This document shows, piece by piece, positions 22,004 through 46,500 of a DNA stretch of 64,000 nt. Within the stretch, counting starts at the first letter, position 1, and each line of letters starts with the position of its first letter. Under the pieces are notes generated by a model. The model did not search any database. It was not told the DNA's origin and saw nothing but the letters and a program-made list of their open reading frames with translations. Origin of the DNA: a virus (Duplodnaviria > Caudoviricetes); IMG/VR virus record IMGVR_UViG_3300017766_001583, positions 2,452 to 66,451 of that record; one strand, given 5' to 3'. Made by a program: the position numbers and the translations under genes.

Positions 22004-22184
22004 CCATGTTCTCCAAAGTTGAATTAAGGTCTACGGCGTAACTACGCGCAGCGAGAAGACCCCGAATCTCGCCGCACATTCTCTTGTATTCCTCAAAGGT
22101 CTCCGCTTTTCCTGAAGACAAAAAGTCCTTGAGTTGATCTACCTTTTCGTCGGTTTGTCTAATCAAAGCTTCTAGCGGAGTCAT
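21996..22184 (-). CDS. Small hypothetical protein
   Basis: 62 aa, FEEYKRMCGEIRGL; follows portal. Confidence 0.6.
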   Translation of the reverse strand: MTPLEALIRQTDEKVDQLKDFLSSGKAETFEEYKRMCGEIRGLLAARSYAVDLNSTLENMDE

Positions 22185-24682
22185 TCGTTACCCTTTTTCT
22201 GTGGTTGTTTGGATTGCTGGGCGCGAGCCTGCAACTCCTCATGACGCTGCTGCATCATGCGAAGCTTTTCTTCTTGATGCTGGCTGGACATCTGTTTAAG
22301 CAGCTCAGTACCCACAGAAATGATCTGCGACGTCTTCTGGCCACTCATATCGGCCGCGGCTTTTAGCAAACCCGCCTTAACGCGCTGCTCATCGGCTTGT
22401 TTCAGAGCCTCAATACGCTCGCGCTCGATCTGCATTTGCTGCTGCTTGAGGGCGGCATCTGTCTGATCTTTGGCGGCTTTGCGCTGCTGTTCCTGCGCTT
22501 TGATCTGAAGCTCTTGCATTTGCATCTGAACAAGCGGGTCTTGAGCTTGTTGCTGAGCTTGTTGCTGGGCGACCTGCTGCTGGTTGTTGGCAAGCAGTCT
22601 TTGAGCTGCCTGGGCCAGGACAGGGGCCAGTTGAGCCTCGACTTGCGGGTCCATCGGGAGGTCTTCGCCCGATTCGTCTTTCTGCGGAGGCAGGGAAAAC
22701 CCAAGGTTTTGCTCGATTTGCTTGCGATACTCAAAGCCAAGATGCTCATTGATGTGAGCCATCATTGCGGCCGAGAGTTGCTGAGCCATCGGGTTGTTTT
22801 GCAGCAGTTGCTGGATCTTAGGATCCTGCATAGCCGACATATGAACCATGATATGAGCCTGATGATCCTGATAAGCGAACGCCTTAACAGGCTTCATCAT
22901 CAGTACATTCTGGTTCTCAGATACTGGATCGGTCGGCTTTTGATCCTCATCCATCGGAACCAGTCGGTCAGCGTCTTTAACCCCCAAAACGTCCAACATT
23001 TGCCGGTGCAGCAGCGGCATGTTGTACAACTGAGGCGACTGCTGGGCCAATTGGAACACTGCTTGGTACTGAACAATCTTCTGCGCCATGGTGGCCGCGT
23101 TCGGATCGCTCACAGGAATCACATCTACGTCGTCATAGTCAGACTTTTTGGCTGACCGATTCCCGGCATTCGGCTCGTAGGTGTAATCCTCTGGGGTGTA
23201 ATCCCTAATGATGTCTCGCAAAAGCACAAGCTCTTGCTTCATCGAGTAATGGATCCTTGCTTGTACAGCACTCATCGTTTTGAGCGTGCGCTCAAGGATG
23301 GCCAGAGTGGTACCAACCGGAGCCTGGGAGGACATATCACTGATCTGAAGGTCGGCCGTATTGGCGAATCGGCGACCCTCTTCAATGATCTTGTCCATCA
23401 GCCCAGCCAAAGTCTGGCTCGGCTCCTTATATGGAAGCGGCAGCAAGTTGTCCTTGATCGTCCCCGAAGGAACGTCAACATCTCGCCACTCACCGGGGCT
23501 AATCGGGGTGTCATCCCCCTTGACCCTCATGCCCCTTGCCTTAAACCCGCCGGGAAGATTGCTCAGCGTGCCGGCATCAACCAACTGACGCAGCAGTGAG
23601 GTGCCGCTCTTTGCGTAGGCGCCGATCAGGTGGATCAGGCCAAAGCAATAAAAGCCAAATCCGGGGATGTAGCCGTAGTGAACCAAGTGTGCGCGCTTGG
23701 TATACGTGTCATCGTCAGGTTGCCAGTTACGGCGAATCGCTAAAACCTTTGAAGATCCTTTCTCAATCGTAACGATGTAAGGCAGCTTCAGGCCGTCTTC
23801 ATCTTCATAGCCAGGGAGATCTAGCTCGACATGCATCTCCAAGAGCTTGTAACGGTCATCCGAAGTCGCTCGGAACCCAAGCCGCTCGGCGATCTTTTGC
23901 TCGACCTCATCTAGGACATTATTGGGTTCGCCAAGGTCGATATCTCGGTAAAACCCAGCAATCTGGAGCCGGCGAAGATCGTTCTCGGTCTTGCGCATGA
24001 CATGCGTGACCCGCGGGGAGGAGGCCAGATCGCTCGCTCCGTAGGGAACAACGACATCCTCGGCAGGCACGTACATCGAAACCTGACGCTGCATCGTCGG
24101 GTCGTAGTACACCTTCTTAAAAGCGTTACCAGCAAGCCCCAGGCCCCACAACATGCGCTCATGCTCGGGCCGGTACTCGGTCATCACATCAGTGAGCTGG
24201 TGGTTCATATCCTCACGAACCCGCTCGGCAGCGTCTTTCTTGGCCGGAGTCTCCTTGCCAATGACTTTAGTCTTCACCGGACCGGCCGCGGGGAAGATGC
24301 TCATCATCGTTTCGGCTTGGAACTTAACCAACGCCTCTGAGAGCATGGGGTGAAACACACCGCAGGCACCCTCCCACGGCTCAGTCCTCTCCTCAATCTT
24401 TAGACCAAGCAGCTCTAGACCGTCCACATACGTCTGGATCCAGTCCTTACGGCTAGACAAATCGTCTGCGTAATCACTTAAAAGCTCATTGGCAATCGAA
24501 TCCAGATCCCCCTCATCCATCTCTTCAGCGAGGTTGGAGTCGAAATCGCTCTCAATGTCGTCAGGCGTCAGGACAATTTCTAAATCGCCCATGCCAATAC
24601 TTACCGAGTCGGGATTCTCGATCTCGATCTCAATCGGTTCGGCCGCAATACCGTCTGGGGACAAAATCTTATCAATGCTCAT
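22181..24682 (-). CDS. Portal protein
   Basis: 833 aa directly after TerL; HPMLSEALVKFQA, GNAFKKVYYD, QLVDAGTLSNLPGG; Gln-rich coiled-coil tail. Confidence 0.9.
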   Translation of the reverse strand: MSIDKILSPDGIAAEPIEIEIENPDSVSIGMGDLEIVLTPDDIESDFDSNLAEEMDEGDLDSIANELLSDYADDLSSRKDWIQTYVDGLELLGLKIEERTEPWEGACGVFHPMLSEALVKFQAETMMSIFPAAGPVKTKVIGKETPAKKDAAERVREDMNHQLTDVMTEYRPEHERMLWGLGLAGNAFKKVYYDPTMQRQVSMYVPAEDVVVPYGASDLASSPRVTHVMRKTENDLRRLQIAGFYRDIDLGEPNNVLDEVEQKIAERLGFRATSDDRYKLLEMHVELDLPGYEDEDGLKLPYIVTIEKGSSKVLAIRRNWQPDDDTYTKRAHLVHYGYIPGFGFYCFGLIHLIGAYAKSGTSLLRQLVDAGTLSNLPGGFKARGMRVKGDDTPISPGEWRDVDVPSGTIKDNLLPLPYKEPSQTLAGLMDKIIEEGRRFANTADLQISDMSSQAPVGTTLAILERTLKTMSAVQARIHYSMKQELVLLRDIIRDYTPEDYTYEPNAGNRSAKKSDYDDVDVIPVSDPNAATMAQKIVQYQAVFQLAQQSPQLYNMPLLHRQMLDVLGVKDADRLVPMDEDQKPTDPVSENQNVLMMKPVKAFAYQDHQAHIMVHMSAMQDPKIQQLLQNNPMAQQLSAAMMAHINEHLGFEYRKQIEQNLGFSLPPQKDESGEDLPMDPQVEAQLAPVLAQAAQRLLANNQQQVAQQQAQQQAQDPLVQMQMQELQIKAQEQQRKAAKDQTDAALKQQQMQIERERIEALKQADEQRVKAGLLKAAADMSGQKTSQIISVGTELLKQMSSQHQEEKLRMMQQRHEELQARAQQSKQPQKKGNE

Positions 24683-24696
24683 ATCTAACCTTTTTG

Positions 24697-26229
24697 TTAA
24701 TAATATGCCCGCTTTTGCCTATAGACAGGCTCGTCATCTTCATCTGATGCCAAACGAATAAACCCGCCCTTGCGATAACGCAGCAACGCCTGGGTCATGG
24801 AGTCAACAAGGTCATCATGATCCCCCGCGGGGAACGCCGCAACCTCTTCTATCAACTCTTCTGCCCAATGAGTATTAGGAACCCAAACCATGCCGGATGC
24901 AAATATATCGGCCACGGCATTTAATCTCGCGATCTTATCGTTGCCTTTAGTTGGAGTAAACTCCTGCACTGGAATACCCATTGCCCGCAATTCAAATATC
25001 AATGGCGAACCAGCGGCTTTAGCTTCAACAATTAAACTATCTACTTCCCACTCTTTAAACTCTTGATAAGCGCGCTGTTTTAGTTCGGGAAACTCCATGC
25101 GCTTTTTAAAAGCATTCAAGAGAATAATATTATTCTGCGGCCGACCAGAATCATCTGTGGAATTAAATACACCCCACGTAGTACAAGCCGAATAGTCAGC
25201 GCGTTCGCTTTTTAAAAACGCAGTATCCCAAGACTGAATAATAAATTCACACGGGGGAGGTCTATCCTCCTCCCATATCTTCCACCACTCGCGCTTAACA
25301 ATAGCGCCGCCTTCAGAGGTGGGATCTTGTTGATACTGGGCCTGCCATTTGGAATTGGGAAGCTCAACCCGTAGGGCATCCAGCTCCTCATAAGACCAAA
25401 ACTCGGGCCATAGGGGTTTGTTTGAGGGCAGGATCGCAGGAAACTCGATCAGCTCCCACTCATCTCCACCTCGTTGCGATGAATCTTTAAGTACCCGTCC
25501 AGTCAAATCACGCTTTGACCAGCGCGTCATCACAACAACAATCGCCCCTCCAGGCTGCAAACGCTGCCGCGGACCGGACGTATACCACTCATAAACAGAA
25601 TCAAAGACCGTCGGATCAGACTCGGCTAACTTAGCCTCTTGCTCTGAATGCGGGTCATCAATAATCAAAAGGTCAGCACCCTTACCAGTGACAGTACCCC
25701 CAACGCCAATAGCGAAATACTCGCCATTAGAATTAGTAGACCACCGCCCTGCCGCCTTTGAATCATGACGCAGAGCCACATTAGGAAAGACCTTGGAGTA
25801 AAGCTCCCCATCAACCAAGTTTCTAACCTTACGGCCGAAACCAACAGCCAGTTCCGCTGTATTAGAAGATTGAATAATCTTTTTATGGGGAAACTTTCCT
25901 AAAAACCACGCCGGCAATAAGTACGAGGCAAACTCCGACTTCGTATGCCGCGGAGGCATATTGATAATCAGCCTCTTTAACTCACCCTTAGCAACCCTTT
26001 CAAAAGCCTTCGCCATGATTTCATGGTGTCGGCCCCCGATAAAGTTCGGCCACATAGTCTTCACAAAATCCATGAAGTGCTGCTGGCCACGCTCCCGCCG
26101 CAAAGCCTCTCCGTACTCCTGGGCAATGATCGCCAGATGCTCCTTCTGCCCATCAGGCAAACGCTCAATGACCGTACTCAACTGAGCATCAGTCATATTC
26201 GCCAGCAACTCCAGCAGCTCATCCTTCAT
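24697..26229 (-). CDS. terL: Terminase large subunit
   Basis: IINMPPRHTKSE Walker A, LLIIDDPH Walker B, QSWDTAF and HDDLVDSMTQAL nuclease motifs. Confidence 0.95.
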   Translation of the reverse strand: MKDELLELLANMTDAQLSTVIERLPDGQKEHLAIIAQEYGEALRRERGQQHFMDFVKTMWPNFIGGRHHEIMAKAFERVAKGELKRLIINMPPRHTKSEFASYLLPAWFLGKFPHKKIIQSSNTAELAVGFGRKVRNLVDGELYSKVFPNVALRHDSKAAGRWSTNSNGEYFAIGVGGTVTGKGADLLIIDDPHSEQEAKLAESDPTVFDSVYEWYTSGPRQRLQPGGAIVVVMTRWSKRDLTGRVLKDSSQRGGDEWELIEFPAILPSNKPLWPEFWSYEELDALRVELPNSKWQAQYQQDPTSEGGAIVKREWWKIWEEDRPPPCEFIIQSWDTAFLKSERADYSACTTWGVFNSTDDSGRPQNNIILLNAFKKRMEFPELKQRAYQEFKEWEVDSLIVEAKAAGSPLIFELRAMGIPVQEFTPTKGNDKIARLNAVADIFASGMVWVPNTHWAEELIEEVAAFPAGDHDDLVDSMTQALLRYRKGGFIRLASDEDDEPVYRQKRAYY

Positions 26230-26453
26230 CAGATGATGTCTCTAACCTTCAAGTACGACGGCCGAATGGTACGCGATTTCTTAGGCGTCCCCTTACATAT
26301 TCCTAACTCCACCAACGCCCACATCTTCCTAGATACATTCCCCCGTCCCTTTTCCCCAGTAACAAACATCACATCGTCCACAGAAGGACCGAAGCCAAAC
26401 TTCTTCCACCACTCATCAATCACTACGTAAATCTCTCTTTGCGCGGGCGTCAT
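26229..26453 (-). CDS. LexA-like winged-helix DNA-binding protein (no peptidase domain)
   Basis: MTPAQREIY..I..W...FGFGPSVDDV...SRTIRP matches the LexA N-terminal domain pattern. Confidence 0.7.
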   Translation of the reverse strand: MTPAQREIYVVIDEWWKKFGFGPSVDDVMFVTGEKGRGNVSRKMWALVELGICKGTPKKSRTIRPSYLKVRDII

Positions 26454-26463
26454 GTTACTTGCC

Positions 26464-26496
26464 TGTGGATAACTCTGTGGATAACCCTGTGGATAA
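26464..26496. promoter_or_regulatory. Three perfect DnaA boxes at 12-bp period
   Basis: TGTGGATAA at 26464, 26476 and 26488 (reverse complement TTATCCACA), intergenic. Confidence 0.8.
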
Positions 26497-26497
26497 G

Positions 26498-26521
26498 CAT
26501 CAGTAACACATGTTACTGATG
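26498..26521. repeat. Perfect 11-bp-arm palindrome (operator-like)
   Basis: CATCAGTAACA-CA-TGTTACTGATG. Confidence 0.85.
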
Positions 26522-26548
26522 GAATTGAGTAACGCGGATTTCAGAAAT

Positions 26549-27409
26549 TTATACCCCCTCCCCCTCTGCGTTTGGAAAAGGGATGGGGGGTGGTTCGTCA
26601 GGAAGGATGGATCGGATGTCTGGATTGCTAAGCAAGGTGGGGGCACAGGCACGCGGCCGATCCAGGGGGGTGCCCGTGCCGGCCCCATCGCCCGCGGCGC
26701 TCGCAACGCCCTGGGCAGTACCGTCGCCCTGGTGCGCATCGCCCTGCACATTACATAGCACGCGCGCCAGCTGCGGCACGCGCAGCCCGGCTAGCGATAC
26801 GCTGTACCCTGGCCCCTCGACGCTCGGACCCTGGCCCGTGGCGGGCGGGGTAGGGTTGGTCGCACCTAGGCTAGGCTGGGTTACAGCTGCATCCGTTGCG
26901 CCCGCTCTGAGCGCTGAACGTAGACTGTCGAGCAGCTGCGTGCGTGCCTGCCCTGCATCGGTCGTCTTGATCACTTCGCGCCGTTCAGTAAAGGCCGCGA
27001 CTTCCGTTACTTTGCCGAGCAGCTCCAGCGCACGCAGTCGCTGGGCCGGTTGGACGTCGGGATTGATGGCATGCTCCGTCAGCTGTTGGATGACCAGGGC
27101 ACGTAGGGCGGCAGGGGATGAATGCCTCGCCGCCTCCTGAGCCAGCACCAGGGCGTCGATCTGCGCCTGCACTGCGCCGCTCTTCGCCAGCTCCTGGCCG
27201 CGCCGGCTCTGTGTCTCCGGTTTGGCCACACTGTGTGGCACCGCATCCCGGTATGCGGCCGCCTTGCTCTTGCCCATGGCGACACTCTCAGCGAACCTTC
27301 GCTCCCTGGGCGTGAGCTTCGTTTGCTTCGCCCCTTGCACCCCTAGCAGCAAAGTATCCATGGGAACGGATGCGAGTGCTTCCCTCGTTTGTTTCCGTGT
27401 CAGCTTCAT
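26549..27409 (-). CDS. terS: Terminase small subunit with long low-complexity C-tail
   Basis: KLTPRERRFAESVAMGKSKAAAYRDA HTH, QRLRALELLGK; start re-called at MKLTRKQ. Confidence 0.75.
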   Translation of the reverse strand: MKLTRKQTREALASVPMDTLLLGVQGAKQTKLTPRERRFAESVAMGKSKAAAYRDAVPHSVAKPETQSRRGQELAKSGAVQAQIDALVLAQEAARHSSPAALRALVIQQLTEHAINPDVQPAQRLRALELLGKVTEVAAFTERREVIKTTDAGQARTQLLDSLRSALRAGATDAAVTQPSLGATNPTPPATGQGPSVEGPGYSVSLAGLRVPQLARVLCNVQGDAHQGDGTAQGVASAAGDGAGTGTPLDRPRACAPTLLSNPDIRSILPDEPPPIPFPNAEGEGV

Positions 27410-27493
27410 CGCGGGTACGTAATGGGTATGTGAATAAGTGTGAATTCTACCCGCACTTTTGCGCTTCGCGCTATTTTCGGAACGCATGAACGC

Positions 27494-27522
27494 TTGACAT
27501 GCAACCCCCATGCGCCCATGCT
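27494..27522 (+). promoter_or_regulatory. Sigma70-type early promoter
   Basis: TTGACA-17 bp-CATGCT just upstream of the first plus-strand gene. Confidence 0.7.
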
Positions 27523-27563
27523 GGTAGCGCAGCACCCCGAAACGAACACACACAGAGGCACAC

Positions 27564-27848
27564 ATGGCACAGAGCAAAGCATTCACCACCGCGTGCTGGA
27601 AGGTACGCGACGCCTTGGCGGCTATCGAATCGACCGACTTCGCGATTTACTCAGAACAGATCATCGACACTTTCCGCGCAGCAAAAGCCCCGAAGGGCTA
27701 TTCGGTCGGCGACCTGTTCATCGAACTGGACACCCGCCCTGGGCGGTATGACTTCACCAACGCCCCCAGCTGGTTCAGCAAGCTGCGCACTGTGCGCAAC
27801 ACGCCACACGCCGGAACCCGCCTCTTCGCTACCTGGAGCAACTCATGA
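27564..27848 (+). CDS. Early hypothetical protein
   Basis: GAGG RBS; ATGA coupling to the next gene. Confidence 0.65.
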   Translation: MAQSKAFTTACWKVRDALAAIESTDFAIYSEQIIDTFRAAKAPKGYSVGDLFIELDTRPGRYDFTNAPSWFSKLRTVRNTPHAGTRLFATWSNS

Positions 27849-28129
27849 TCATCGAACCCGACGACCTGTTTAGATTCTGGACACCCGACGCCGTAGCCGA
27901 GTGTCTGTCCGTCTCCGATGAAACCTACCGTGCCCTATGGCACATAGTCGCCAACGCGCCCCCTCGTGAGTTTTGCGAGACACCCGACGCACAATGGGAC
28001 CGTTACGCGCTCATTCGGACCTGGGATCAACTCGACGCTACCGCCCAGGCCGACTGCAACCGCGCAGCCGCTAAGCACATGGAAAGCATCCGTGCTGCCG
28101 ACGCTTACAACCTCAACACGGAGAATTGA
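27845..28129 (+). CDS. Early hypothetical protein
   Basis: 94-aa coupled ORF. Confidence 0.6.
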   Translation: MIIEPDDLFRFWTPDAVAECLSVSDETYRALWHIVANAPPREFCETPDAQWDRYALIRTWDQLDATAQADCNRAAAKHMESIRAADAYNLNTEN

Positions 28130-28132
28130 CCA

Positions 28133-28651
28133 ATGTGGTACTACGACATTTCACCCGACGCCACCCGCGCCGCCATTGTTGAACGCGACGGATCAACCGT
28201 TGCCGACGTATCCGCGCCCGCTCACACCACGGCAGAAACCAATTTCGCCGATACCCTGGCCATGATGGCCGCAGCACCTACCATGCTGGCCGCGCTTCGC
28301 GCTCTGACCGACGCCATGGCGACCGTGGCGCGGCCGGTAGAGAATTGGCCCGAGTACTCGCAGGCGCTCCGGGCAATCGCCCGCGCTACGCAACCGCTCA
28401 CGCTCGATTATGTTCAAGACTCCGGCCACGGTTGGATCGGGGTCGACTATGACATGCTCGACCGGCTCGGGATCGCGAGTGAGATCACCGAGTACTCATA
28501 CCGTGGGCCGGATCGCGCATGGCTCGAGGAAGACTGCGACGCCGGCGTCTTGATGCGCGCCTTGTCATGCGCGGGCATCGAGTACCGAATCAAAGAAAAC
28601 CACATGCACGCAATGTGGATTCGCAGCCTGCCCCGCTGGAGTAAAGCATGA
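28133..28651 (+). CDS. Early two-domain hypothetical protein
   Basis: MAAAPTMLAAL motif fused to a DSGHGWIGV...SY...LEEDCDA domain. Confidence 0.7.
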   Translation: MWYYDISPDATRAAIVERDGSTVADVSAPAHTTAETNFADTLAMMAAAPTMLAALRALTDAMATVARPVENWPEYSQALRAIARATQPLTLDYVQDSGHGWIGVDYDMLDRLGIASEITEYSYRGPDRAWLEEDCDAGVLMRALSCAGIEYRIKENHMHAMWIRSLPRWSKA

Positions 28652-28851
28652 TTTACGTCATTACCTACACCAACCGACGCGGCCATGTCGGATTTTTGGG
28701 TGGCGGCCGGTTCACCACGAAATCGGAAGCGGAGCGCACCCTGACCGACTTGCGAGAATGGGCAGAGGAAGCGGGCCGGTCGAATCTCACAGTCCGCCGG
28801 TTTAAGAACATGACCGAAGCCTGCAATTGGCGCGATGCCAACCAAGCCTAG
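28648..28851 (+). CDS. Early hypothetical protein
   Basis: 67-aa coupled ORF. Confidence 0.55.
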   Translation: MIYVITYTNRRGHVGFLGGGRFTTKSEAERTLTDLREWAEEAGRSNLTVRRFKNMTEACNWRDANQA

Positions 28852-28854
28852 TAC

Positions 28855-28900
28855 GCGAAACCCCTACGGGGGTCTGCTGGCAGCACCAGCACTGATGAGC
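28855..28900 (+). ncRNA. Type II hammerhead ribozyme
   Basis: GC-GAAA-CCCC(UACG)GGGG-UC^-UGCUGG(CAGCA)CCAGCA-CUGAUGA-GC; complete catalytic core, predicted cleavage after 28874. Confidence 0.85.
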
Positions 28901-28938
28901 AACGCCGGCCCGCTACCGGTTCACCATGGGACAAGACC

Positions 28939-29196
28939 ATGATTGGCATCGAAACCAAAGTTATTCCCGCGTCGAACACGCGCCCGCGCCGTATTTGTGC
29001 GTTCACCTGCAACGGGCACCGCATCATCCGAGCGTATGACTCGGACGCACAGTCCGACGTCCTGGCACATTTTGCGGTCGCCCAGGCACTGATCGCCGAA
29101 CAATTCGATCATCCGCTGCCCTATCAGACCATGGCCTATGGCGGCACGAAGCTCGGGTACTTTTTCTGCTGGCCTCAATCGACGGTCGGAGCCTGA
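28939..29196 (+). CDS. Early hypothetical protein
   Basis: IETKVIPASNTRPRRI motif common in small early phage proteins. Confidence 0.65.
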   Translation: MIGIETKVIPASNTRPRRICAFTCNGHRIIRAYDSDAQSDVLAHFAVAQALIAEQFDHPLPYQTMAYGGTKLGYFFCWPQSTVGA

Positions 29197-29198
29197 CC

Positions 29199-29642
29199 AT
29201 GCTCACACTCACCCAGGCCGGCATCGACCGGCTCACACTTGACACCTACGACGGGTGCGAGCCTCCCGTTTTCGTTTACTGGAACCTGCGCCGCGCCTGC
29301 TGGTCCCTGCGCGCAATGCGTGGACACAATGCCGGCCGCGTCATCGCTCACGCATCCCTGCTGACCCTGGCCGCCGTCGCGCCTAAAGTGTCGGCCGCCG
29401 GTCGCGAGCGAGTGCGCCGCGAGAATCGCAAGAATGTGCACGCCGGACTAATCGGGGTCGTTGACCTGCGCGATTCTGTCGGGATGACGCTCGACCTGCC
29501 AACTTGCGATGCCCGCATCACATATGACCCATATATGCATGACGGGTTTGTTTATTCAGACGGTCGACCGTTTAGGGCTGCACGATACGCAGTGCTGCAA
29601 ACGATCAACAATCGCGCCCGCGTGCGCGTGAGCCAGGAGTAA
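29199..29642 (+). CDS. Conserved phage hypothetical protein
   Basis: VYWNL...WSLR...VSAAGRERVRRENRKNVHA...TYDPY. Confidence 0.75.
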   Translation: MLTLTQAGIDRLTLDTYDGCEPPVFVYWNLRRACWSLRAMRGHNAGRVIAHASLLTLAAVAPKVSAAGRERVRRENRKNVHAGLIGVVDLRDSVGMTLDLPTCDARITYDPYMHDGFVYSDGRPFRAARYAVLQTINNRARVRVSQE

Positions 29643-29647
29643 CACCC

Positions 29648-30325
29648 ATGCTGTACCACTACGTCGAGCGGTCATCGAACCGCAAAACCGGCCCGATCCC
29701 GGTGGTCTACTCTGAGCGCAGCACCTGCCCGCCGTCCTGCCCGCACTACCGGTCAGACTGTTACGCGGAGGATTTTTATACGCGCCTCGCCTGGGACAAG
29801 GTAGCCCAACGCGGCGCCGAGCTGGCAATGCTTTGCGAGCGGGTCGCAGCGTTACCCGACAATCAATTGTGGCGCTTCAATATCGCGGGCGACCTCCCCG
29901 GCGAAGGTGAGGCGGTCGATCCCGTGGCCCTGGGGCATATCGTCTGGGCAAACAGGGGCAAGCGTGGCTTCACATACACGCACAAGAAAAGCCCCGACGC
30001 GATCAAATGGGCAAAGCATGCGACCGACTGGGGTTTTACGGTCAATCTGTCGGCGGATGATGCCGGCGAAGCTGACGCACTGGCCGCTCATGGGCTGCCC
30101 GTCGTTTGCATTGTGCCGACCGATAGCCCGGAGAAAAGCGCCACGCCTGGGGGCCGGCGAATTGTCGTCTGCCCCGCTCAGACACGGGAGGACGTTACAT
30201 GCGCGACCTGCGGGCTATGCGCCAGGGCGGATCGCTCCGTGATCATCGGATTCCGTGCCCACGGCACCCGTGCAAAGCTTGCAGACGCCCGCGCCCGGCG
30301 GGTCATCCCCATCACCGTGCAGTGA
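29648..30325 (+). CDS. Cys-rich putative Fe-S protein (gp88/DUF7227-like)
   Basis: SNRKTG...TCPPSCP...CYA, RFNIAGDL, FTYTH, CPAQ..TCATCGLC, IGFRAHG. Confidence 0.65.
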   Translation: MLYHYVERSSNRKTGPIPVVYSERSTCPPSCPHYRSDCYAEDFYTRLAWDKVAQRGAELAMLCERVAALPDNQLWRFNIAGDLPGEGEAVDPVALGHIVWANRGKRGFTYTHKKSPDAIKWAKHATDWGFTVNLSADDAGEADALAAHGLPVVCIVPTDSPEKSATPGGRRIVVCPAQTREDVTCATCGLCARADRSVIIGFRAHGTRAKLADARARRVIPITVQ

Positions 30326-30335
30326 TAGGGTCGCA

Positions 30336-30384
30336 CGTACAGGGCCGCGTGCGGTTCTGTGCGGGCAATCCTGCCCACCTGGAG
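30336..30384 (+). promoter_or_regulatory. Two-hairpin leader element, copy A (upstream of acrIII-1)
   Basis: CGTACAG-GGCC...GGTT-CTGTGCG then GGGCA-ATCC-TGCCC then GGAG. Confidence 0.6.
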
Positions 30385-30390
30385 AACATT

Positions 30391-30717
30391 ATGCAATTCA
30401 TCAGTAACGCTTTTTCGCTCGGCATGGTGCCCAGGCACTTGCTGCGTACAGTGCGGGTGACCCCGTGCGAGCGCCCCGAGCTGTCAGGGTTGTGGTCTGT
30501 TGTCGGCCATGCCGACACCGCGCAGGTTCTCGGTGTCCCGTTCAATCGGGCAAGCGTCACCCTGCAAGCGGGTGATGTTCTGTACGTCGCGCAATTGCGC
30601 GGCGGCCGCCTGCCCGAGGGATCAACAACCCTGCCCGAGGGATTCGGGTTTGATTGGTGCCGGGTCGAGGTCGCGGGGGTTATCTCGCAGGCCGAGGCTC
30701 TGCTGGCGAGCCTGTAA
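30391..30717 (+). CDS. acrIII-1: AcrIII-1-like viral ring nuclease (DUF1874/STIV B116 family)
   Basis: ISNAFSLGM, SVVGHADT (catalytic His), FNR, GDVLYVAQL, RLPEG; GGAG RBS before ATG 30391. Confidence 0.85.
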   Translation: MQFISNAFSLGMVPRHLLRTVRVTPCERPELSGLWSVVGHADTAQVLGVPFNRASVTLQAGDVLYVAQLRGGRLPEGSTTLPEGFGFDWCRVEVAGVISQAEALLASL

Positions 30718-30739
30718 CCCCATCACCTGGGAGAACATC

Positions 30740-30982
30740 ATGCCATTCGCAGCACGTTACCCTGGTCAGTGCGCCCGCACTGGCACCCCTATCAAAATAG
30801 GCGACCCGATTGTATCGGTCGGTCGCAACCGTTACGCGCACGCCACGCTAAGCACGCCAGCGACACGCGACGATGATCGGTACATCTCCCATATTTGGCG
30901 CTTGTCGTCCGGCAAAGAGCTGTACCGGAACAAGGCCGGCCGATGCGAAGACGCGCCATGCTGCGGGTGCTGCAATGTCTAG
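30740..30982 (+). CDS. Small Cys-rich early protein
   Basis: ARYPGQCARTG...RCEDAPCCGCC; GGGAG RBS. Confidence 0.7.
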   Translation: MPFAARYPGQCARTGTPIKIGDPIVSVGRNRYAHATLSTPATRDDDRYISHIWRLSSGKELYRNKAGRCEDAPCCGCCNV

Positions 30983-31241
30983 CATCGACTACACCGTGAC
31001 CGACGGCCAGCTCGTCGTCATGCACCATGGCCGACCGGAAGGGGCATGGGTTTTGCCCGATTCCGATGGGGTTGGCGTGCTGACTGTCGAGCTGGAAGAC
31101 CTGACCGGATTCGGATACGTCGACATTGTTCAACTGTCCGACGGCCGGCATGCGGTCATCGATAACACTTCTGCAACCCTGTATCGGTCTGCTGCGGATT
31201 CCTTTTCCGACCATAACCCCTGGCCCCTGGAGGCATTATGA
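30975..31241 (+). CDS. Early hypothetical protein
   Basis: Start re-called at MSSIDY, overlapping the previous stop. Confidence 0.55.
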   Translation: MSSIDYTVTDGQLVVMHHGRPEGAWVLPDSDGVGVLTVELEDLTGFGYVDIVQLSDGRHAVIDNTSATLYRSAADSFSDHNPWPLEAL

Positions 31242-31492
31242 GCATAGTCGCGCACCCTGGCGGAGGTTTTTCCGTCACCGGCCCCGAATCAATCGCCCTG
31301 TACCGTCTGATTGTCCTGCGGCAGGCCCTGAGCCTGTACGCAAAGACCGGGATGCGCCCGTCCCGCAGCGTCACCCCGACCTATATGCTTCAGATGGCCG
31401 AGGAGGTTACGGGCAAAAAGTACAAGCGGGGGCAGCACGCCCAGGCGGCCGAAGACATGAATGCGGTCATCGACGCCCGGAGGCCCGCATGA
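31238..31492 (+). CDS. Early hypothetical protein
   Basis: GGAGG RBS; 84 aa. Confidence 0.65.
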   Translation: MSIVAHPGGGFSVTGPESIALYRLIVLRQALSLYAKTGMRPSRSVTPTYMLQMAEEVTGKKYKRGQHAQAAEDMNAVIDARRPA

Positions 31493-31692
31493 CTCACGAT
31501 GCTAGCGCCCTGGTCGAGCGCGCCCGGAAGTTATACGAGAGTGACGCGCTTGAAATCGACGACAACTCGCGCATCAGCGTGACCGAAAACGGGTACTGGG
31601 TCCAGGCATGGGTCTGGGTGCCCGGCGCGCCCGAGAGCGACGGCAATTCAGACAGCAACGAGGATTCAAAGCGCCACGGAGGCGCATGGTAA
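31489..31692 (+). CDS. Early hypothetical protein
   Basis: MTHDASAL...EIDDNSRIS...GYWVQAWVWV; ATGA coupling. Confidence 0.6.
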   Translation: MTHDASALVERARKLYESDALEIDDNSRISVTENGYWVQAWVWVPGAPESDGNSDSNEDSKRHGGAW

Positions 31693-31699
31693 GGGTTCA

Positions 31700-31749
31700 C
31701 GTACAGCCCCTGTACGCGGGGGTTGTGCGGGCAATCTTGCCCCATAGGA
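31700..31749 (+). promoter_or_regulatory. Two-hairpin leader element, copy B
   Basis: CGTACAG-CCCC...GGGG-TTGTGCG then GGGCA-ATCT-TGCCC then GGAG. Confidence 0.6.
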
Positions 31750-31756
31750 GAAGACA

Positions 31757-31855
31757 ATGTACGAAGAGGATATTGCCCTGTGGAAGGGTCTGCTGTTAGG
31801 TGCCGGCCTGGGGCTGGCGTTCTGGCTTGTTGTTGTGTTCCTTTTCACCCTTTGA
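31757..31855 (+). CDS. 32-aa single-pass membrane peptide (absent from the ORF track)
   Basis: MYEEDIALWKGLLLGAGLGLAFWLVVVFLFTL; GGAG RBS. Confidence 0.6.
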   Translation: MYEEDIALWKGLLLGAGLGLAFWLVVVFLFTL

Positions 31856-31862
31856 GGTAGTC

Positions 31863-32036
31863 ATGGATCCTTTTACAGTCACCATCGTGGACGAAGAGCT
31901 GACCGTTTACTTTAAAACGACCGACGTTCAGCGGACATGGAAACAACACGGCTGGGTGCCGCCCAGCGAGACACCTGAGTTCTTGGCAAAATGGGAGTAC
32001 TTTCGGAAGCTTGACACCGAGCGGAGGAGTGTTTGA
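31863..32036 (+). CDS. Early hypothetical protein
   Basis: YFKTTDVQRTWKQHGWVPPSE; GAGGT RBS. Confidence 0.65.
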   Translation: MDPFTVTIVDEELTVYFKTTDVQRTWKQHGWVPPSETPEFLAKWEYFRKLDTERRSV

Positions 32037-32332
32037 ACAACCTGAAGATGTACGGGGGGCGTGTCCCCCTTTTGACGGGACACCCCGATAACCCGATCCT
32101 GCTGGTCGACTTCCCGTCGTTTGAGGAGTTCAGCAAACTCTATGGGCATCGGGTTTCAATCGGTAGCCGCATTCGGTACTACGAGCTGCTCTCGGCTCGC
32201 GTAAAAGGGGCCACCCTGGAGGATGCCGGCCAGCTCGCAGGCGTCACTCGCGAGAGGGTTCGGCAGATCGAGGCGAAGTTCCTGCGCCTGATGCGCCGGT
32301 CACGACTGGCTTCAATGAAGCCATCGCTTTGA
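32033..32332 (+). CDS. Sigma70 region-4-like HTH protein
   Basis: TLEDAGQLAGVTRERVRQIEAK. Confidence 0.75.
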   Translation: MNNLKMYGGRVPLLTGHPDNPILLVDFPSFEEFSKLYGHRVSIGSRIRYYELLSARVKGATLEDAGQLAGVTRERVRQIEAKFLRLMRRSRLASMKPSL

Positions 32333-36083: not shown

Positions 36084-36086
36084 GCG

Positions 36087-36112
36087 AAAAAAAACCCCCG
36101 GAGGTGGGGGTT
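36087..36112 (-). terminator. Rho-independent terminator
   Basis: AACCCCC-ACCTCC-GGGGGTT followed by a T-run (minus strand). Confidence 0.85.
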
Positions 36113-36147
36113 AAATCTCTCAGGAGAGGAGAGAGGAGACAGAAGAA

Positions 36148-36756: not shown

Positions 36757-36939
36757 TTACCGTTCGTTCCACTCCCGCGGAGCCATCATGCTGTACTTGC
36801 TCCTCGCATCCAAATCGATCTGCGACACAATCTTCTTAAAATCTCGACACGGTTTGCACTTGTCGCACTTACGTTCGCACTGTTTGAAGATTGTGCACTT
36901 AACACTTTCGGGTGATGGCCGCGGGTCTTGTTGGAACAT
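36757..36939 (-). CDS. Small Cys-rich hypothetical protein
   Basis: CTIFKQCERKCDKCKPC. Confidence 0.45.
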   Translation of the reverse strand: MFQQDPRPSPESVKCTIFKQCERKCDKCKPCRDFKKIVSQIDLDARSKYSMMAPREWNER

Positions 36940-36942
36940 TTC

Positions 36943-37230
36943 TTATCTTAGTACTTTGTTGAACATCCACGCCGCAGCGGGATCGGTCTTGAGTTTAGGG
37001 GGCAGGGGGATTTCCCCTACTGCTTTATAAATATACCGATTGCCCGCAGTTCTGCCGACACGGGCAACAACTCGCCTTTCTACTAACTTCTCCATTGCAA
37101 GCCGCACCTTATCGCGCGGTAGGTGAAGCTTCGCAGCCGCTGCATCAATCGAAAGTTCTTCTTTAGCGACCATCTCAAGGACGATCTGCCGCAGGGGCTT
37201 GGGTTTGCCTAGTCGTTTGCTGTATGTCAT
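36943..37230 (-). CDS. Winged-HTH protein
   Basis: LSIDAAAAKLHLPRDKVRLAMEKLVERRVVAR. Confidence 0.6.
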   Translation of the reverse strand: MTYSKRLGKPKPLRQIVLEMVAKEELSIDAAAAKLHLPRDKVRLAMEKLVERRVVARVGRTAGNRYIYKAVGEIPLPPKLKTDPAAAWMFNKVLR

Positions 37231-37239
37231 AGCGATTCG

Positions 37240-37458
37240 TTACTCCACTCCATTTTGTAAATTCCATCTTGATTTGTCGTGGAAAAGTTCAAGTGCTTTC
37301 CTGCCTTCTGGCGTTAATTGGTTAGCATCAATCAGACCGCGGCGCACCAATGACCAATAGGTCCCGCCGGCCCCTCGTTTGCCACTGAAAATAGCCCCCC
37401 ATTCGCAACCGTTCTCAAGTGTTTGCAACATAAAGGCCTGGGCAGGGGATAGCCTCAT
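37240..37458 (-). CDS. Hypothetical protein
   Basis: 72 aa, coupled; SLVRRGLI...LTPEGR. Confidence 0.55.
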   Translation of the reverse strand: MRLSPAQAFMLQTLENGCEWGAIFSGKRGAGGTYWSLVRRGLIDANQLTPEGRKALELFHDKSRWNLQNGVE

Positions 37459-37688
37459 TCCTTCCCGGTTTTAATAGGCACGTTACTCCACTCCACTTTG
37501 TAGATCCCGCCATCCAGCCCAAAGTCCACGCGCAGGTTGCACTCTTTGAAAACGGGATGGATGGGGTGCCCAAGGTTGTGGGATAGGGGAGTAACTCTGT
37601 AGTAATTACTCTGAAGGATCTTGTGCTGATCCTCGGGCGGAAGGACCGGGCCGGTGTACACGGGGGGGTTAGTTGCCGGGCCTTTCAT
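37455..37688 (-). CDS. Hypothetical protein
   Basis: 77-aa coupled ORF. Confidence 0.5.
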   Translation of the reverse strand: MKGPATNPPVYTGPVLPPEDQHKILQSNYYRVTPLSHNLGHPIHPVFKECNLRVDFGLDGGIYKVEWSNVPIKTGKE

Positions 37689-37996
37689 CCCCTTCCCCTT
37701 GCGCGAATCATCACCGCAGCGGCAAGCGTCCCGTGTCCTTCAATGCCTGTTTGCTCCACAACATTTGCACACGCCTCACGTTCAGCAGCGGCGACAAGAT
37801 TAGCGAAGTGATACCGGGTAAATTGCTCGCCGGCTTTTATAGATTCGGTCAGTGCTTGTTGCCATAGCGTGTCAATGTCGTCGCGGTTCATTGTTCTTCC
37901 ATCCAATCTGACTTTTGTTGCCGCTCTAGCATTTTCTGCAAATCTCTTTCCAGTATTGATAATAGCTTTGCGTAGGTTATCGGCGTATTCACTCAT
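37685..37996 (-). CDS. Hypothetical protein
   Basis: FANLVAAAEREACA motif common in phage accessory proteins. Confidence 0.6.
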   Translation of the reverse strand: MSEYADNLRKAIINTGKRFAENARAATKVRLDGRTMNRDDIDTLWQQALTESIKAGEQFTRYHFANLVAAAEREACANVVEQTGIEGHGTLAAAVMIRARGRG

Positions 37997-38904
37997 CCCT
38001 CTTCCCTTTTCTTTCGCGGCTGTGTGATCGAAAACCTAACGTCGTGCATTACGAATGAATCTATACCGCGCATGTGCTTGTTGATGTCGATATCGACTCC
38101 TTCTTTAAGTCGCCGCTTGTGTGCTTTGACCCAATGCAATATAGGACGCAACCTCCCAGAGTTAGTGAGGGGAACCGACCGGGCATAGAACAAACTTTTT
38201 ATGTATTCCTCATCAATTGAGAACATGGCCCTTGCGGGATAATTTTCCCAAAACTCTTCCGTTGCTTGCACTTCCCAAAAGTAACGCCTGTCGTTATGTA
38301 GGCCAACCACATAGGAAAGGAGCAGGGCGGGGTACATGGACGGTACGCCGTTAAGCGAACACCCAACACAAGTGCCATCAGGAAAGATACCTGCAAAAGC
38401 CGGTTGAACTATAGTTTCCATCTCGCCTTTGGAATCTGCTACAACAGACTTAGAAAGGGATTCATAACCAAGATACATACCAACTCTAAAAACATGACTA
38501 ACACCTGAAAGCGCCCTGTGTTTCTTTGCAAAACCAGCCTGTACTTTTTGCGCGTATACCGCGCTTGCATATATCCCCCGAGCAGGACTAGGCATGTGGA
38601 CTACTGCGTTATACGGTATCTCGTCGTTCACCGTATCTATTTGGCCCAAAAGCGTAATCCGATCTTTCCAAGGAAACCGAACCCCGTAGTCCACTAGCGG
38701 CGCGTAATCTTCTATCCTCAAAGTCTTAGTATTAGTTGCTGATCTTTGGTGATTGTTCATTACCAATAACATGGCCTTCGTGGCAGAGTCAGCTATTTCC
38801 TCGTCATCCAAAACAAAACTACTGGCGCGAATAAACTTCTGTTGGGGGGTGTGTTTTACGACTGACGAAGAATTTATAAATTTCAAAAGGTTCATTTTGC
38901 CCAC
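37993..38904 (-). CDS. Hypothetical protein (AT-richer)
   Basis: 303 aa; C-terminal GRLRPILHWVKAHKRR...HMRG. Confidence 0.65.
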   Translation of the reverse strand: MGKMNLLKFINSSSVVKHTPQQKFIRASSFVLDDEEIADSATKAMLLVMNNHQRSATNTKTLRIEDYAPLVDYGVRFPWKDRITLLGQIDTVNDEIPYNAVVHMPSPARGIYASAVYAQKVQAGFAKKHRALSGVSHVFRVGMYLGYESLSKSVVADSKGEMETIVQPAFAGIFPDGTCVGCSLNGVPSMYPALLLSYVVGLHNDRRYFWEVQATEEFWENYPARAMFSIDEEYIKSLFYARSVPLTNSGRLRPILHWVKAHKRRLKEGVDIDINKHMRGIDSFVMHDVRFSITQPRKKREEG

Positions 38905-39185
38905 CCCTTCGCCTTGGCAAGCTCACGACAAGCGCACGCATAATGCGCCGGCCCCCAGCTCCAGCATCCCTCTGCATGAGTGAACTGCCTGTGCTTTGAT
39001 AGCGCATCGGTATATGTCGCATATGCCTGTTCCTTACCCAGCGCATCACGTAGCTGCTCCATGAGATCCCAAACCGGGCGCCACTGAGCGCAGTCCGGGC
39101 ACCCTGGCTCTTTGCAGTCTGCATCTAGGTCTGCGGTCATGGACTCCAAAACCTCAAGAATCCTTTCCATTTCGGTCTTGCTCAT
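38892..39185 (-). CDS. Hypothetical protein
   Basis: CKEPGCPDC; HAEGCWSWGPAHYACA. Confidence 0.55.
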   Translation of the reverse strand: MSKTEMERILEVLESMTADLDADCKEPGCPDCAQWRPVWDLMEQLRDALGKEQAYATYTDALSKHRQFTHAEGCWSWGPAHYACACRELAKAKGWAK

Positions 39186-39408
39186 CTGTTGCTCCGCATT
39201 CTCTTATCCTCCAGTAAGTTTTACCGCCTGACTTGTAAGTAACAGTCACAAGCTTACGATCCCACAAATTATGCAGTGCGCGGGCAATGTTGCTTCGTCC
39301 GACTCCGACTTCATCGCACACTTGCTGAACGGTTTGTGTTCCGTTCTTTTCCAGCACTCGCAAGATCAAAATCTTGGTTGGGTCTAAGTTAGAACGGCGC
39401 GGGTTCAT
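39154..39408 (-). CDS. Winged-HTH (MarR/TrmB-like) protein
   Basis: ILRVLEKNGTQTVQQVCDEVGVGRSNIARALHNL. Confidence 0.7.
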   Translation of the reverse strand: MNPRRSNLDPTKILILRVLEKNGTQTVQQVCDEVGVGRSNIARALHNLWDRKLVTVTYKSGGKTYWRIRECGATDEQDRNGKDS

Positions 39409-39589
39409 AGTCGGCGGTATCGACACTCTTCTTCTTGTGCTTCTTCAGCTCGCTGACCGGAACAACCTCTTGAGCTGGGAACGGGAAGCCATTTGAAGAA
39501 GGGAAGCGAACCACTGCATAGCCCGCTGTGCCAACAACATCCACAACACCGTGCCGGCCGTTATGCGTGACCCACATCCCCGGAGTCAT
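39389..39589 (-). CDS. Small SH3-like hypothetical protein
   Basis: GMWVTHNGRHGVVDVV. Confidence 0.5.
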   Translation of the reverse strand: MTPGMWVTHNGRHGVVDVVGTAGYAVVRFPSSNGFPFPAQEVVPVSELKKHKKKSVDTADYEPAPF

Positions 39590-39789
39590 GCCTGATCCTT
39601 GGTTTGATAAGGAATGCCGTTGTTCTCTTTCAGCAGCTCGATGTTTGCCTTCATGAGCCTAAGCTCAGTGATTGCGCGAACAGCCTCGACTGAAGCCTGA
39701 TCCCAATCTTTCCTGATCATCAACTCTTCCATGCTTTTGACTAACTGTTTAATGGAAATTATTTGTTCCGAATAATCGATCACCGCCAT
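39586..39789 (-). CDS. Hypothetical protein
   Basis: 67-aa helical, coupled ORF. Confidence 0.55.
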   Translation of the reverse strand: MAVIDYSEQIISIKQLVKSMEELMIRKDWDQASVEAVRAITELRLMKANIELLKENNGIPYQTKDQA

Positions 39790-43205: not shown

Positions 43206-43559
43206 ATGAAACCGATCCAGCTTGTCTTGCCCTGGCCTCCGAGCGTTAACAATTACTGGTTGCAGCGAGGCACGGCTAGGTTCATTGGTGCCAAGGGCAA
43301 AGCGTTCCGCAAGGCCGTCGCAGAAGAGTGCGCGGCCCAGGGGATCGTTGCTTTGGAGGGCAGGCTATCGATGCATGTGACCATGTGGCCACCGGATCGA
43401 CGCCGTCGGGATATCGATAACCCGATGAAGGCTTTGCTAGATGCCTGCGAACATGCCGGGTGCTACGAGGACGATGGGCAGATCGATGAGTTGCACATCG
43501 TCCGCCAAGAAGTGTATCGAGGCGGACGGTGCGTGATCATGATCTTGCCTATTCGGTAA
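43206..43559 (+). CDS. rusA: RusA Holliday junction resolvase
   Basis: LPWPPSVNNYW...PPDRRRRDIDN..KALLD...DDGQID. Confidence 0.9.
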   Translation: MKPIQLVLPWPPSVNNYWLQRGTARFIGAKGKAFRKAVAEECAAQGIVALEGRLSMHVTMWPPDRRRRDIDNPMKALLDACEHAGCYEDDGQIDELHIVRQEVYRGGRCVIMILPIR

Positions 43560-46500
43560 GAGCTTCTTGGCGCCTCACGTTTTTAAACGTTTCTACCCGC
43601 AGCTCTTTGATTGGTGCCAACAACTCATTGCGTAGTCTTTGCATTTCTACGATTTCTTTCCTGCGCGCTTGCGGAGTCGTGGTTTTGTCCTTCGATTCGC
43701 CCAACCTTCTGATCTCTGAATTGATTTCTTTAAGCTCTTCTTCGGTTTCGCTAATGTATTCGTACATGCCATCAATGTCGCCGTGCTTCTCGATGTATTT
43801 GTCGGCGGCTTTGTAGTCTTCTCGCTCGATAAGTTTTTTCAGAGTTTCGTGTTTTTCCATGACGATTTCTTTGAAGTCATAGAACAGGTCTTCGTTACCG
43901 CGAGGCACTTCCTCTCGCTTGAACGAACCGGTGATGGGCATCTCGCGAGGAGAAGGGGCCGGTCGAGTAGACGCTTCGATGCTGTTGCTAACCCACTGAG
44001 CCATAGCGCCAGCCGTTCCGAACAATCCGCGAACAATGTGATCCGCCTCCATCGGGTTCAGAGCGCGCTTACTTGTGCCTGGGATGGCCGTCATGGCACT
44101 GAGCTTCTTGCCAAGCTCTGAGGTGCTGGCCACGTATTGTTGCGCTGCCTCTACTCCTTCAACAGACTGAGGAGTGATCTGGCGACCAGTAAAGAAGCTG
44201 TGGTTGATCCCTACCTCCAAAAGCGTTTTGACTCCAGCAGGAATCGGCTCAGGCCCAAGCAATGCATCGCGAGCAAACTCTGCCAACGCTCTACGAAGAC
44301 GCCGCGCATCGTTCTCATTCTTGGTCCCATCTCTGGTGATCTTGTTGTAGATCAGCTCAGGGATGGCCTTGAAGATAAGAGCGGCACTGGTGTTGATCGG
44401 CATCACGATCTTGGTGCCAGGGATCATGATGTTGCGCAGCTTAGTTTGATCGTCCAGCTCATCGTACTCAGGATCGCCGCCAGCCAACATGCAATAAAGA
44501 ATCGTCAAAGTAGACAGCGTAGTCGCGGCAACGGCCAACCGAGCGATTGCTTTCTTGCGGCTCATGCCTTTAAGGCCGCCGCCCTGAAGGCTATTGAGAA
44601 GCACATCAGTCGAGTTCATCCAGGCGCCAATAAATGGCACTGTCTTCACCGCGGCTTGGGCAAACCCAGCGGAGCCATGATGCATGAAGTTAATGACATT
44701 TGCTGCTTGATACAGCGCCTGGGTTTGATCGCCGGTTTCAGCCATGACGCGCTTGTAGACGCCAACGCGCTGAGCCATATCGGAAGAGTCGCCAATGTGA
44801 TCCAACGTTTTGATTACCGCTGAATACACGTTGCGATTCATGATCCCCAGGCGCCGCTTGATCTCGGCCTCCGGGGTACGAGCTGGGCTATGGAATCCAC
44901 CAATACCAGCGGCTTTCAAGATGTCAATCACCGGATCAACGTTGACGCCAGCTTTCTTCATCCCAGGCTGAATAAGGCTAGTCAGGAAGCCTTTCCAAAC
45001 GCCACCGATCAGAGCGATAGGATTGCGAACGCCAGTCACCAGGGCGGCAGTCGGAGCGTCCTTGAACACCTGCTTCACTTGGAACACGCCAGACAGCGTC
45101 ACCCCTCGCCGAGTGAAGTTGGCGACCGCGGCCATCGGCGCCCACATTCTGAGGTTGATGTTCTCCATCCCGTAGATCGAGGCAACGACAACCGGATCTT
45201 GAATCTGAACAACAACCTTCTTGCCATTCACCATCCAGTTGAACTTGCCCTCTTCTGGATTGACTGACGGATAGACGCGGATCTTTCCTTCTGCGTTACG
45301 AACAGCGTACTCAAGCACGATCCTGTTCGATGCAAACTGCCGGATCCCGTTCATCGTCATACGCATAACGTTGCGCGTCATGTTGTCGATGATGTTCTGG
45401 ATCTCGCGGTTGGTTTCAAACGTCACCAAGTCGCCGGCTTCCAAAGCCATGTTGATGCGGACATCGCCTTGAGGTGTGGCCGTCACCAAGTCTGGGCTAA
45501 TCCGCTTGCCGTTGACCTTCACCTTAACCACAGAGGTCGGCTGGATCTTGAAGTCCTGTTGACCAGCAGTAGCGATGATATCCACTACATTGCGGGGACG
45601 GCCGCTCTTGAACAGTTTCTCCCGGCCAATGTTAACCAGCGACCGAGTCGTTGACTGAACAGCTTGCCCAGCAGAGTGAATGTCCTCGTCGTCATTCATG
45701 ATCCGATACCAAGGCACATAGTCCTTGATAGCAGACAGAGTTTCATACCGACCTTGAGATATTAGGCCGACCTGACGCCAGACTCTCAGCAGGTTTTGAT
45801 TGACCGCCGTCCAGTTATCCATAAGCGTGCGCAGCTCAGGATGCTTTTCATCCAGCGCAGCAAACTCATACATCTCCTCTTCGGACATGTTGACTGAGGA
45901 GGCGGCCCTGTTGATTGCTTCCAGATCGACCTTCAGATCATCGACTGCTTTCTTGGCCTCGGCAATATCTTCTGGAGGCGCCATCATCGCTTCCATTGCC
46001 TCAAGATTTTGCTCGGCTCTCTCTAGCGCATCAGTCCGCTCGCGCAGCTCATCCATGATGCTGATCGAACGCTTGGCCTCCAAATAACCCTGAACAATGT
46101 CAGTACCGAGCTGATTCCCAAGGCGCTTCTTGATTGCCGCTTCAGCTTCGTAAACGCCACGCATCCCAAGGTCGCGCTTGACTGCAACAAAGTTACCAAG
46201 CGCTGCGTTGTACTCAAGGCCGCCGCTGAAAATCACTTCAACACCAATGTTGCCGCTACGGATCGCGTTGTCGAGTGCAACAGACGACGTAACAATGTCG
46301 GCACTTGTGCGCAACTGTCCTTGGTAACGGGCAAAGTCCCGAGACTCTAGACCAGCGCCGTACCAAGAAGTCAGGTTACGTGCATTCAGGAGGGCATCGG
46401 TGACATTCCGTTCGGCAGCGGCAGCGGTTTGAATCGGACTTGTGACGGCGTCGGTTACAAAGTCTTTGCCGTTCGTATATGCATTGGTCAGTAAGGTCAG

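Follow-up and report, generated by a model that had tools for sequence, protein, structure and literature searches.

We found that positions 30391-30717 (+) of the analysed DNA encode a 108-aa protein which sequence, profile, fold and active-site evidence confirm as an intact member of the AcrIII-1/DUF1874 family. We consider it probable (about 0.78) that the gene product is a catalytically competent AcrIII-1-family ring nuclease, which would remove host cA4 in analogy to SIRV1 gp29. The window, by which we mean the whole stretch of 64,000 nucleotides that was analysed, spans bases 2452-66451 of an IMG/VR virus record of 66,451 bp, which has direct terminal repeats and was judged complete. Unless stated otherwise, all coordinates refer to the window.

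The first-pass annotation had listed the motifs NAFS, S-V-V-G-H-x-D-T, N-R, D-x-L-Y-V-x-Q and R-L-P-E-G, and all of them are present in the 108-aa translation in the order claimed (NAFS at residues 6-9, SVVGHADT at 36-43, NR at 52-53, DVLYVAQ at 62-68 and RLPEG at 73-77). It had also stated that the ORF track hides the gene inside a 172-aa frame. The gene is indeed the tail of the frame 30199-30717, which at its beginning shares 127 nt with the DUF7227 gene upstream (29648-30325). The proposed start, ATG 30391 with the Shine-Dalgarno motif GGAG at 30381-30384 (+), 6 nt upstream, agrees with several kinds of data: homologues share this start column in our alignment of 28 sequences, the similarity to the DNA of a sister phage sets in at 30385, just ahead of the ATG, and for the identical protein on five independent contigs the gene callers all give the same 108-aa product. 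The GGAG is part of TGGAGAACATTATG, of which a copy with one mismatch is found at 30729-30742, before the next gene. The sole in-frame alternative start downstream of the preceding gene, GTG 30349, was rejected as it has no Shine-Dalgarno motif and there is no homology upstream of 30385. The GC content of the gene is 63.6% and its GC3 is 74%.

We compared the protein with Pfam, PHROG, PDB and several sequence collections. As a single sequence it scored 17.5 bits against PF08960 (STIV_B116-like, formerly DUF1874), which is under the gathering cut-off of 26 bits, and it matched PHROG 5063, a family without assigned function, at 3.6e-8. In a phmmer search of the PDB sequences the top three matches were 2x4i (SIRV1 gp29), 6scf (the SIRV1 gp29 H47A-cA4 complex) and 2j6b (AFV3-109), though the E-value of 0.011 for 2x4i is weak. 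The profile of the 28 homologues recovered all four solved archaeal-virus DUF1874 proteins, with E-values of 2.6e-8 for 2x4i, 1.7e-6 for 6scf, 2.6e-6 for 2j6b and 4e-3 for 2j85 (STIV B116). An HMM search against DUF1874 had been suggested as a check of the family assignment; its outcome is thus below the Pfam gathering cut-off for the single sequence and significant to the solved DUF1874 proteins for the 28-sequence profile. PF08960 was detected at E<0.01 in 17 of the 28 clade members. A large protein collection yielded 2516 homologue clusters at E<=1e-3, and the matches listed were all pre-annotated as PF08960.17; an exhaustive search of representatives gave 1423 clusters at 50% identity. The match is far beyond chance because of these 2516 clusters and the profile E-value of 2.6e-8 to a DUF1874 protein in the PDB. 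Among 50,697 GenBank phage records tblastn detected three distinct viruses only, the best of them being THSA-485A (49% identity, E 5e-18). BLASTP to the DUF1874 protein of THSA-485A gave an E-value of 2e-27 with 49% identity over 102 aligned columns.

The predicted structure leads to the same family. With the 28-sequence alignment as input, the AlphaFold2 model of the single chain reached a mean pLDDT of 93 and a pTM of 0.82. In a Foldseek search against the PDB the first eleven matches were chains of 6scf, 2x4i, 2j85 and 2j6b, the next was the Marinitoga Csx1-Crn2 protein and then we saw only noise. VIA-align superposed the model on the cA4-bound chain 6scf_E with a Z-score of 11.6 and an rmsd of 2.6 A over 94 residues; the Z-scores were 11.1 for 2j85, 10.8 for 2x4i, 10.6 for 2j6b and 9.4-9.8 for Csx1-Crn2. 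All chains with Z>=2 were DUF1874 or Crn2 proteins and no unrelated chain was among them. The comparison with SIRV1 gp29 which had been put forward as a further check therefore gives the same fold for the predicted model (Z 11.6 to 6scf_E and 10.8 to 2x4i). The DUF1874 fold spans residues 1-95/96 of the model. A C-terminal helix at residues 97-107 (pLDDT about 70-80) lies outside the conserved fold and occurs in the closest subclade only, i.e. in 10 of the 28 aligned homologues.

In order to evaluate the active site we relied on what has been reported for SIRV1 gp29: H47 is the absolutely conserved general acid, and H47A loses more than 2500-fold; R85 is the lid-locking arginine; and N8, S11, N13, S49, T50, R66 and Q81 make side-chain contacts to cA4 (10.1101/778746). 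We took the residue mapping from the HMMER alignments. H47 corresponds to H40, R85 to R73, N8 to N6, S11 to S9, T50 to T43, R66 to R53 and Q81 to Q68, and two positions differ, with N13 replaced by G11 and S49 by D42. Counting R85 with the seven contact residues, 6/8 are identical and 2/8 are substituted. The predicted cA4 pocket consists of N6, S9, T43, R53, Q68, R73 and E76, with H40 as the putative catalytic histidine. We computed the conservation over 164 aligned sequences (cluster representatives) and obtained 154/158 for H40, 156/158 for R53, 153/157 for Q68, 153/156 for R73, 151/156 for E76, 134/138 for N6 and 138/139 for S9. The histidine of the GH motif and the conserved Arg and Glu residues named in the first-pass annotation are thus all present (H40, R53/R73 and E76) and more than 96% conserved across about 160 representatives. 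Since the 108-aa protein carries the consensus residue at every one of these conserved active-site positions (H40, R53, Q68, R73, E76, N6 and S9), we judged it to be probably catalytically competent. At the S49 position, Asp (D42) prevails in the bacterial/phage branch (143/158), and the functional THSA-485A protein has it as well. Gly11 is specific to the nearest clade, and most family members have Gln there.

Of the characterised systems, the DUF1874 protein of THSA-485A (Tsac_2833) is the most similar. When its duf1874 gene was tested in vivo, type III immunity was abolished if it was based on cA4, but not if it was based on cA6 (Athukoralage et al., 10.1101/778746). Both proteins are phage-borne, the identity of 49% extends across the whole domain and the motifs NAFSL-M, GHADTA, NR and VAQL-GGRLPEGSTTLP-GF are common to both. 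The THSA-485A protein is shorter (102 aa compared to 108 aa), has Gln in place of Gly11, makes a somewhat longer loop behind the GH helix and lacks the C-terminal helix. THSA-485A is a Thermoanaerobacterium phage and its host a thermophilic Firmicute, whereas our gene comes from an uncultured aquatic podovirus-like phage. SIRV1 gp29 (2X4I; H47A-cA4 complex 6SCF), the founding AcrIII-1 protein, was found in an archaeal rudivirus. It shares the fold, the catalytic His and the equivalents of N8, S11, T50, R66, Q81 and R85, but the identity is only about 22-25% and the 108-aa protein differs by N13 to G, S49 to D and shorter loops. STIV B116 (2J85) and AFV3-109 (2J6B) are likewise archaeal virus proteins; they have about 24% identity, fold Z-scores of 11.1 and 10.6 and profile E-values of 4e-3 and 2.6e-6, respectively. 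The cellular Crn2 proteins (e.g. Marinitoga Csx1-Crn2, 8Y7F/8Y7G) show the same domain fold with Z-scores of 9.4-9.8 and presumably use the same chemistry. However, Crn2 is defined by its association or fusion with type III CRISPR loci, whereas here we have a free-standing protein of 108 aa in a phage without Cas10. We searched the phage genome for Cas10/Csm1 and Cmr2 and obtained no match, while control genomes scored. Without a Cas10 gene in the phage, we assign the gene to the viral AcrIII-1 type and not to Crn2.

About 15 small genes, the ring nuclease gene among them, form a block at 27564-32332 (+), between leftward packaging and structural genes, which extend up to about 27.3 kb (terminase 24697-26229, portal 22181-24682), and leftward primase and helicase genes from 32.2 kb onward. 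The block contains mostly ORFans together with an L5 gp82-like gene, a DUF7227 gene, the ring nuclease gene and a terminal gene for a sigma-70 region-4 HTH protein. Pfam and PHROG searches of the remaining small genes of the block showed no known anti-defence function. The GC content of the block is 61% compared to 53% for the window, and no other part of the window is as GC-rich (59-61.5% at 26000-32000 against 46-57% elsewhere). This suggests that the GC island is accessory DNA with an origin or history of its own. Immediately ahead of the ring nuclease gene, within 29199-30325 (+), we observed the L5 gp82-like gene (PF25735, 1e-31) followed by the Cys-rich DUF7227 gene (Pfam 5.9e-76). Both are without assigned function, and at other loci neither of them accompanies the DUF1874 gene. 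Across 82 DUF1874 loci we looked for a conserved neighbour, e.g. an Aca-type regulator, and found none. The best neighbour cluster occurred in 16/82 loci once antisense shadow ORFs of the gene had been excluded, and the neighbours in the window belong to no such cluster.

A TTGACA-N17-CATGCT site at 27494-27522 (+), 42 nt ahead of the gene that opens the block, is the single occurrence of this pattern in the window, with 0.04 expected by chance. This sigma-70-like site is likely to be a host-RNA-polymerase promoter of the operon that holds the ring nuclease. A generic promoter scan of the window produced nothing better, and no strong promoter directly before the ring nuclease gene. Judging from the promoter-like sites here and at the sister-phage orthologue, the block would probably be transcribed early, as an operon, which lends indirect support to the 'early island' of the first-pass annotation. 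The intergenic stretch between the DUF7227 and ring nuclease genes contains a structured, GC-rich hairpin leader at 30326-30378 (+), and a second copy is located at 31690-31745 (+) before a 32-codon ORF for a hydrophobic membrane peptide (31757-31855). Both copies (30326-30393 and 31690-31759) end in a Shine-Dalgarno motif and an ATG and have TGTGCGGGCAATC(C/T)TGCCC in common. Their folds were predicted at -29.7 and -29.4 kcal/mol (z -2.2 and -3.6). The hairpin leader is absent from the sister phage.

Two further features of the window were noted. Within the small-gene block and some 1.5 kb ahead of the ring nuclease gene, at 28853-28908 (+), a Hammerhead_II candidate with the full CUGAUGA / GAAAC / GUC core scored 33.7 bits against a gathering score of 37 (E 4e-4). 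The sister phage has no hammerhead ribozyme and the 18 closest viral loci (141 kb) showed no Rfam family at gathering score, and we conclude that there is no association of ribozymes with the DUF1874 gene in the closest clade. At 43549-52902 (-) the window encodes a polyvalent protein of 3117 aa with LPD38 (1.1e-20) and DUF6884 (1.9e-13) matches, which is likely to be an ejected multi-domain protein.

We compared the window with the sister phage, a 67-kb JGI contig (L004). Its version of the ring nuclease protein is 87% identical and is likewise encoded behind the terminase, in roughly the same place. At the DNA level the structural genes are 64-91% identical between the two phages. For the small-gene block, the similarity is confined to the ring nuclease ORF (L004 9995-10325 to window 30385-30715, 85.8%), and the flanks, the neighbouring genes and the regulatory sequences are unrelated. 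As the similarity in the block ends at the ORF and the flanks are unrelated, the gene behaves as a mobile single-gene cassette. It is also under purifying selection: we computed a dN/dS of 0.32 against the L004 orthologue, and none of the 14 substitutions affects H40, R53, Q68, R73 or E76. This combination of selection and mobility, for a single gene within a variable accessory region, is what one typically sees with anti-defence genes. An ENA contig represents the same phage assembled independently (99.995% identical over 20 kb), and several further sequencing runs carry the identical ring nuclease protein. In the comparison with L004 we also saw that part of the replication/accessory region (36900-39600 of the window, L004 17300-18300) is inverted relative to the structural module.

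In L004 the orthologue has its own near-consensus promoter, TTGACT-17-TATACT, followed by the palindrome TCTGACAATGTCAGA before the ribosome binding site, and promoter and palindrome recur before the genes adjoining the ring nuclease. The region L004 9300-10430 contains repeated near-consensus sigma-70 promoters (TTGACA/T-N17-TATGCT/TATACT), each followed by TCTGACA(A/T)TGTCAGA before the ribosome binding site, as well as AT-rich spacers and strong terminators. The palindrome TCTGACA(A/T)TGTCAGA is likely a repressor operator, and the block in L004 resembles a set of early genes that are transcribed by the host polymerase and controlled by a repressor. We searched the window for the palindromic operator TCTGACAWTGTCAGA of L004 and it is absent.

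Several searches were directed at the host. The terminase large subunit is nearest to those of aquatic podoviruses, at 46-58% identity (Pelagibacter phages HTVC027P/023P, DSL-LC04 and freshwater cyanophages). No tRNA genes were detected in the window and megablast of 24 kb of the phage against the GenBank phages gave no match. Matches of the ring nuclease to bacterial genomes reach at most 61% identity and come from groups as different as Bacteroidota, Bacillota, CPR and others, and therefore give no host clue. At 36086-36141 (-) there is a match to Rfam RF02278 (Betaproteobacteria toxic small RNA) with 45.8 bits against a gathering score of 50 (E 3.4e-6), which was found on the 99.995% identical contig copy and shows a CU-rich 5' part, a GC hairpin and a U8 tail. 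This match may hint at a betaproteobacterial host.

If the protein works like SIRV1 gp29, the gene would be expressed from the block of small, probably early, genes and the product would form a homodimer that binds one cA4 at its interface. The lid loop GGRLPEG, in which R73 corresponds to R85 of SIRV1 gp29, would close over the cA4, and His40, the equivalent of H47, would act as general acid and protonate the leaving group during an in-line attack by the 2'-OH. Cleavage of cA4 into two A2>P halves would be metal-independent. By removing the cA4 produced by a host Cas10 complex, the enzyme would keep the cA4-dependent CARF or SAVED effectors of a host type III system (Csx1/Csm6-type nucleases etc.) off.

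The first-pass annotation had called such a gene notable in an aquatic podovirus-like phage, which goes too far. Already the first descriptions presented the family as widespread in phages (10.1101/778746; PMC8284326), and since 2019-2020 it has been reported to occur widely in archaeal viruses, bacteriophages, prophages and plasmids. For cultured phages, 36 of 28,114 genomes carry an AcrIII-1 family gene (10.1101/2024.09.24.614671). We found at least 124 IMG/VR loci, jumbo phages included, which match two short motif patterns. The family is thus rare in cultured phages and plentiful in uncultured ones.

Alternative explanations for the gene differ in how much of the ring nuclease function they retain. 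A chance open frame or a decaying, functionless pseudogene could be suspected, as the gene was listed only within the 172-aa frame and its single sequence stays under the Pfam cut-off. However, the ORF is full-length and intact with a Shine-Dalgarno site, its fold prediction is confident and the identical protein recurs on contigs from several independent samples. This explanation is effectively refuted by the thousands of homologues, their alignment, the repeated occurrence and the dN/dS of 0.32. We also considered whether the ring nuclease fold was kept while the main benefit comes from some other activity, e.g. the binding and inhibition of a host protein or late-stage housekeeping. There is a precedent in SIRV2 gp37, the rudivirus orthologue, which had no anti-CRISPR effect in native infection, because the gene is expressed middle/late, and which has a second, protein-binding role with a lysine methyltransferase (Martinez-Alvarez et al., 10.1101/2023.01.10.523387). 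In our protein the subclade-specific helix 97-107 could be a partner-binding element. However, the methyltransferase partner occurs in Crenarchaeota only and no more than a few rudiviruses conserve the residues of the interaction (10.1101/2023.01.10.523387), the strongest conservation that we observed falls on the catalytic and cA4-pocket residues, and the gene sits in a small-gene block with host-type promoter features and not among the late genes. We regard a different main activity as quite improbable. The case of SIRV2 gp37 does imply that anti-CRISPR function in vivo hinges on expression timing.

It is likewise unlikely, in our view, that the protein is an active cyclic-oligoadenylate nuclease whose natural target is another defence based on cA4 or a related cyclic oligonucleotide, perhaps an undescribed one, or whose specificity has shifted. 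What speaks for such a target is the Gly that the closest clade has where N13 of SIRV1 gp29 contacts cA4 and most relatives have Gln, the extra C-terminal helix outside the fold, and the fact that the family is far commoner in environmental viral contigs than in cultured phages (36/28,114, 10.1101/2024.09.24.614671). To our knowledge cA4 has so far been the messenger of type III CRISPR, which counts against this explanation, and the catalytic His and all remaining pocket residues are retained. The nearest tested relative, that of THSA-485A, is moreover cA4-specific and anti-type III (10.1101/778746). A related idea, to which we give little credence, is that the closest clade with its Gly11, its C-terminal helix and its cassette exchange forms a specialised sub-branch with an altered ligand preference or a second, partner-binding function. 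If this were true, the abundance in viromes would point to a widespread, unappreciated cA4-like defence in aquatic bacteria, possibly in Betaproteobacteria.

We thus retain cA4 removal by an AcrIII-1-type ring nuclease as the preferred explanation. The gene is a further member of a well-known and common phage family and leaves the knowledge of the family unchanged. It does receive a confident functional label, where routine annotation had left it as 'hypothetical' because it is below the Pfam cut-off and in a PHROG family without assigned function. The conservation between two related phages, precise to the ORF and with unrelated flanks, illustrates neatly, on a small scale, how an anti-defence gene moves as a cassette. 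For the biology of the phage, the presence of the gene would predict cA4-based type III CRISPR signalling in its host.
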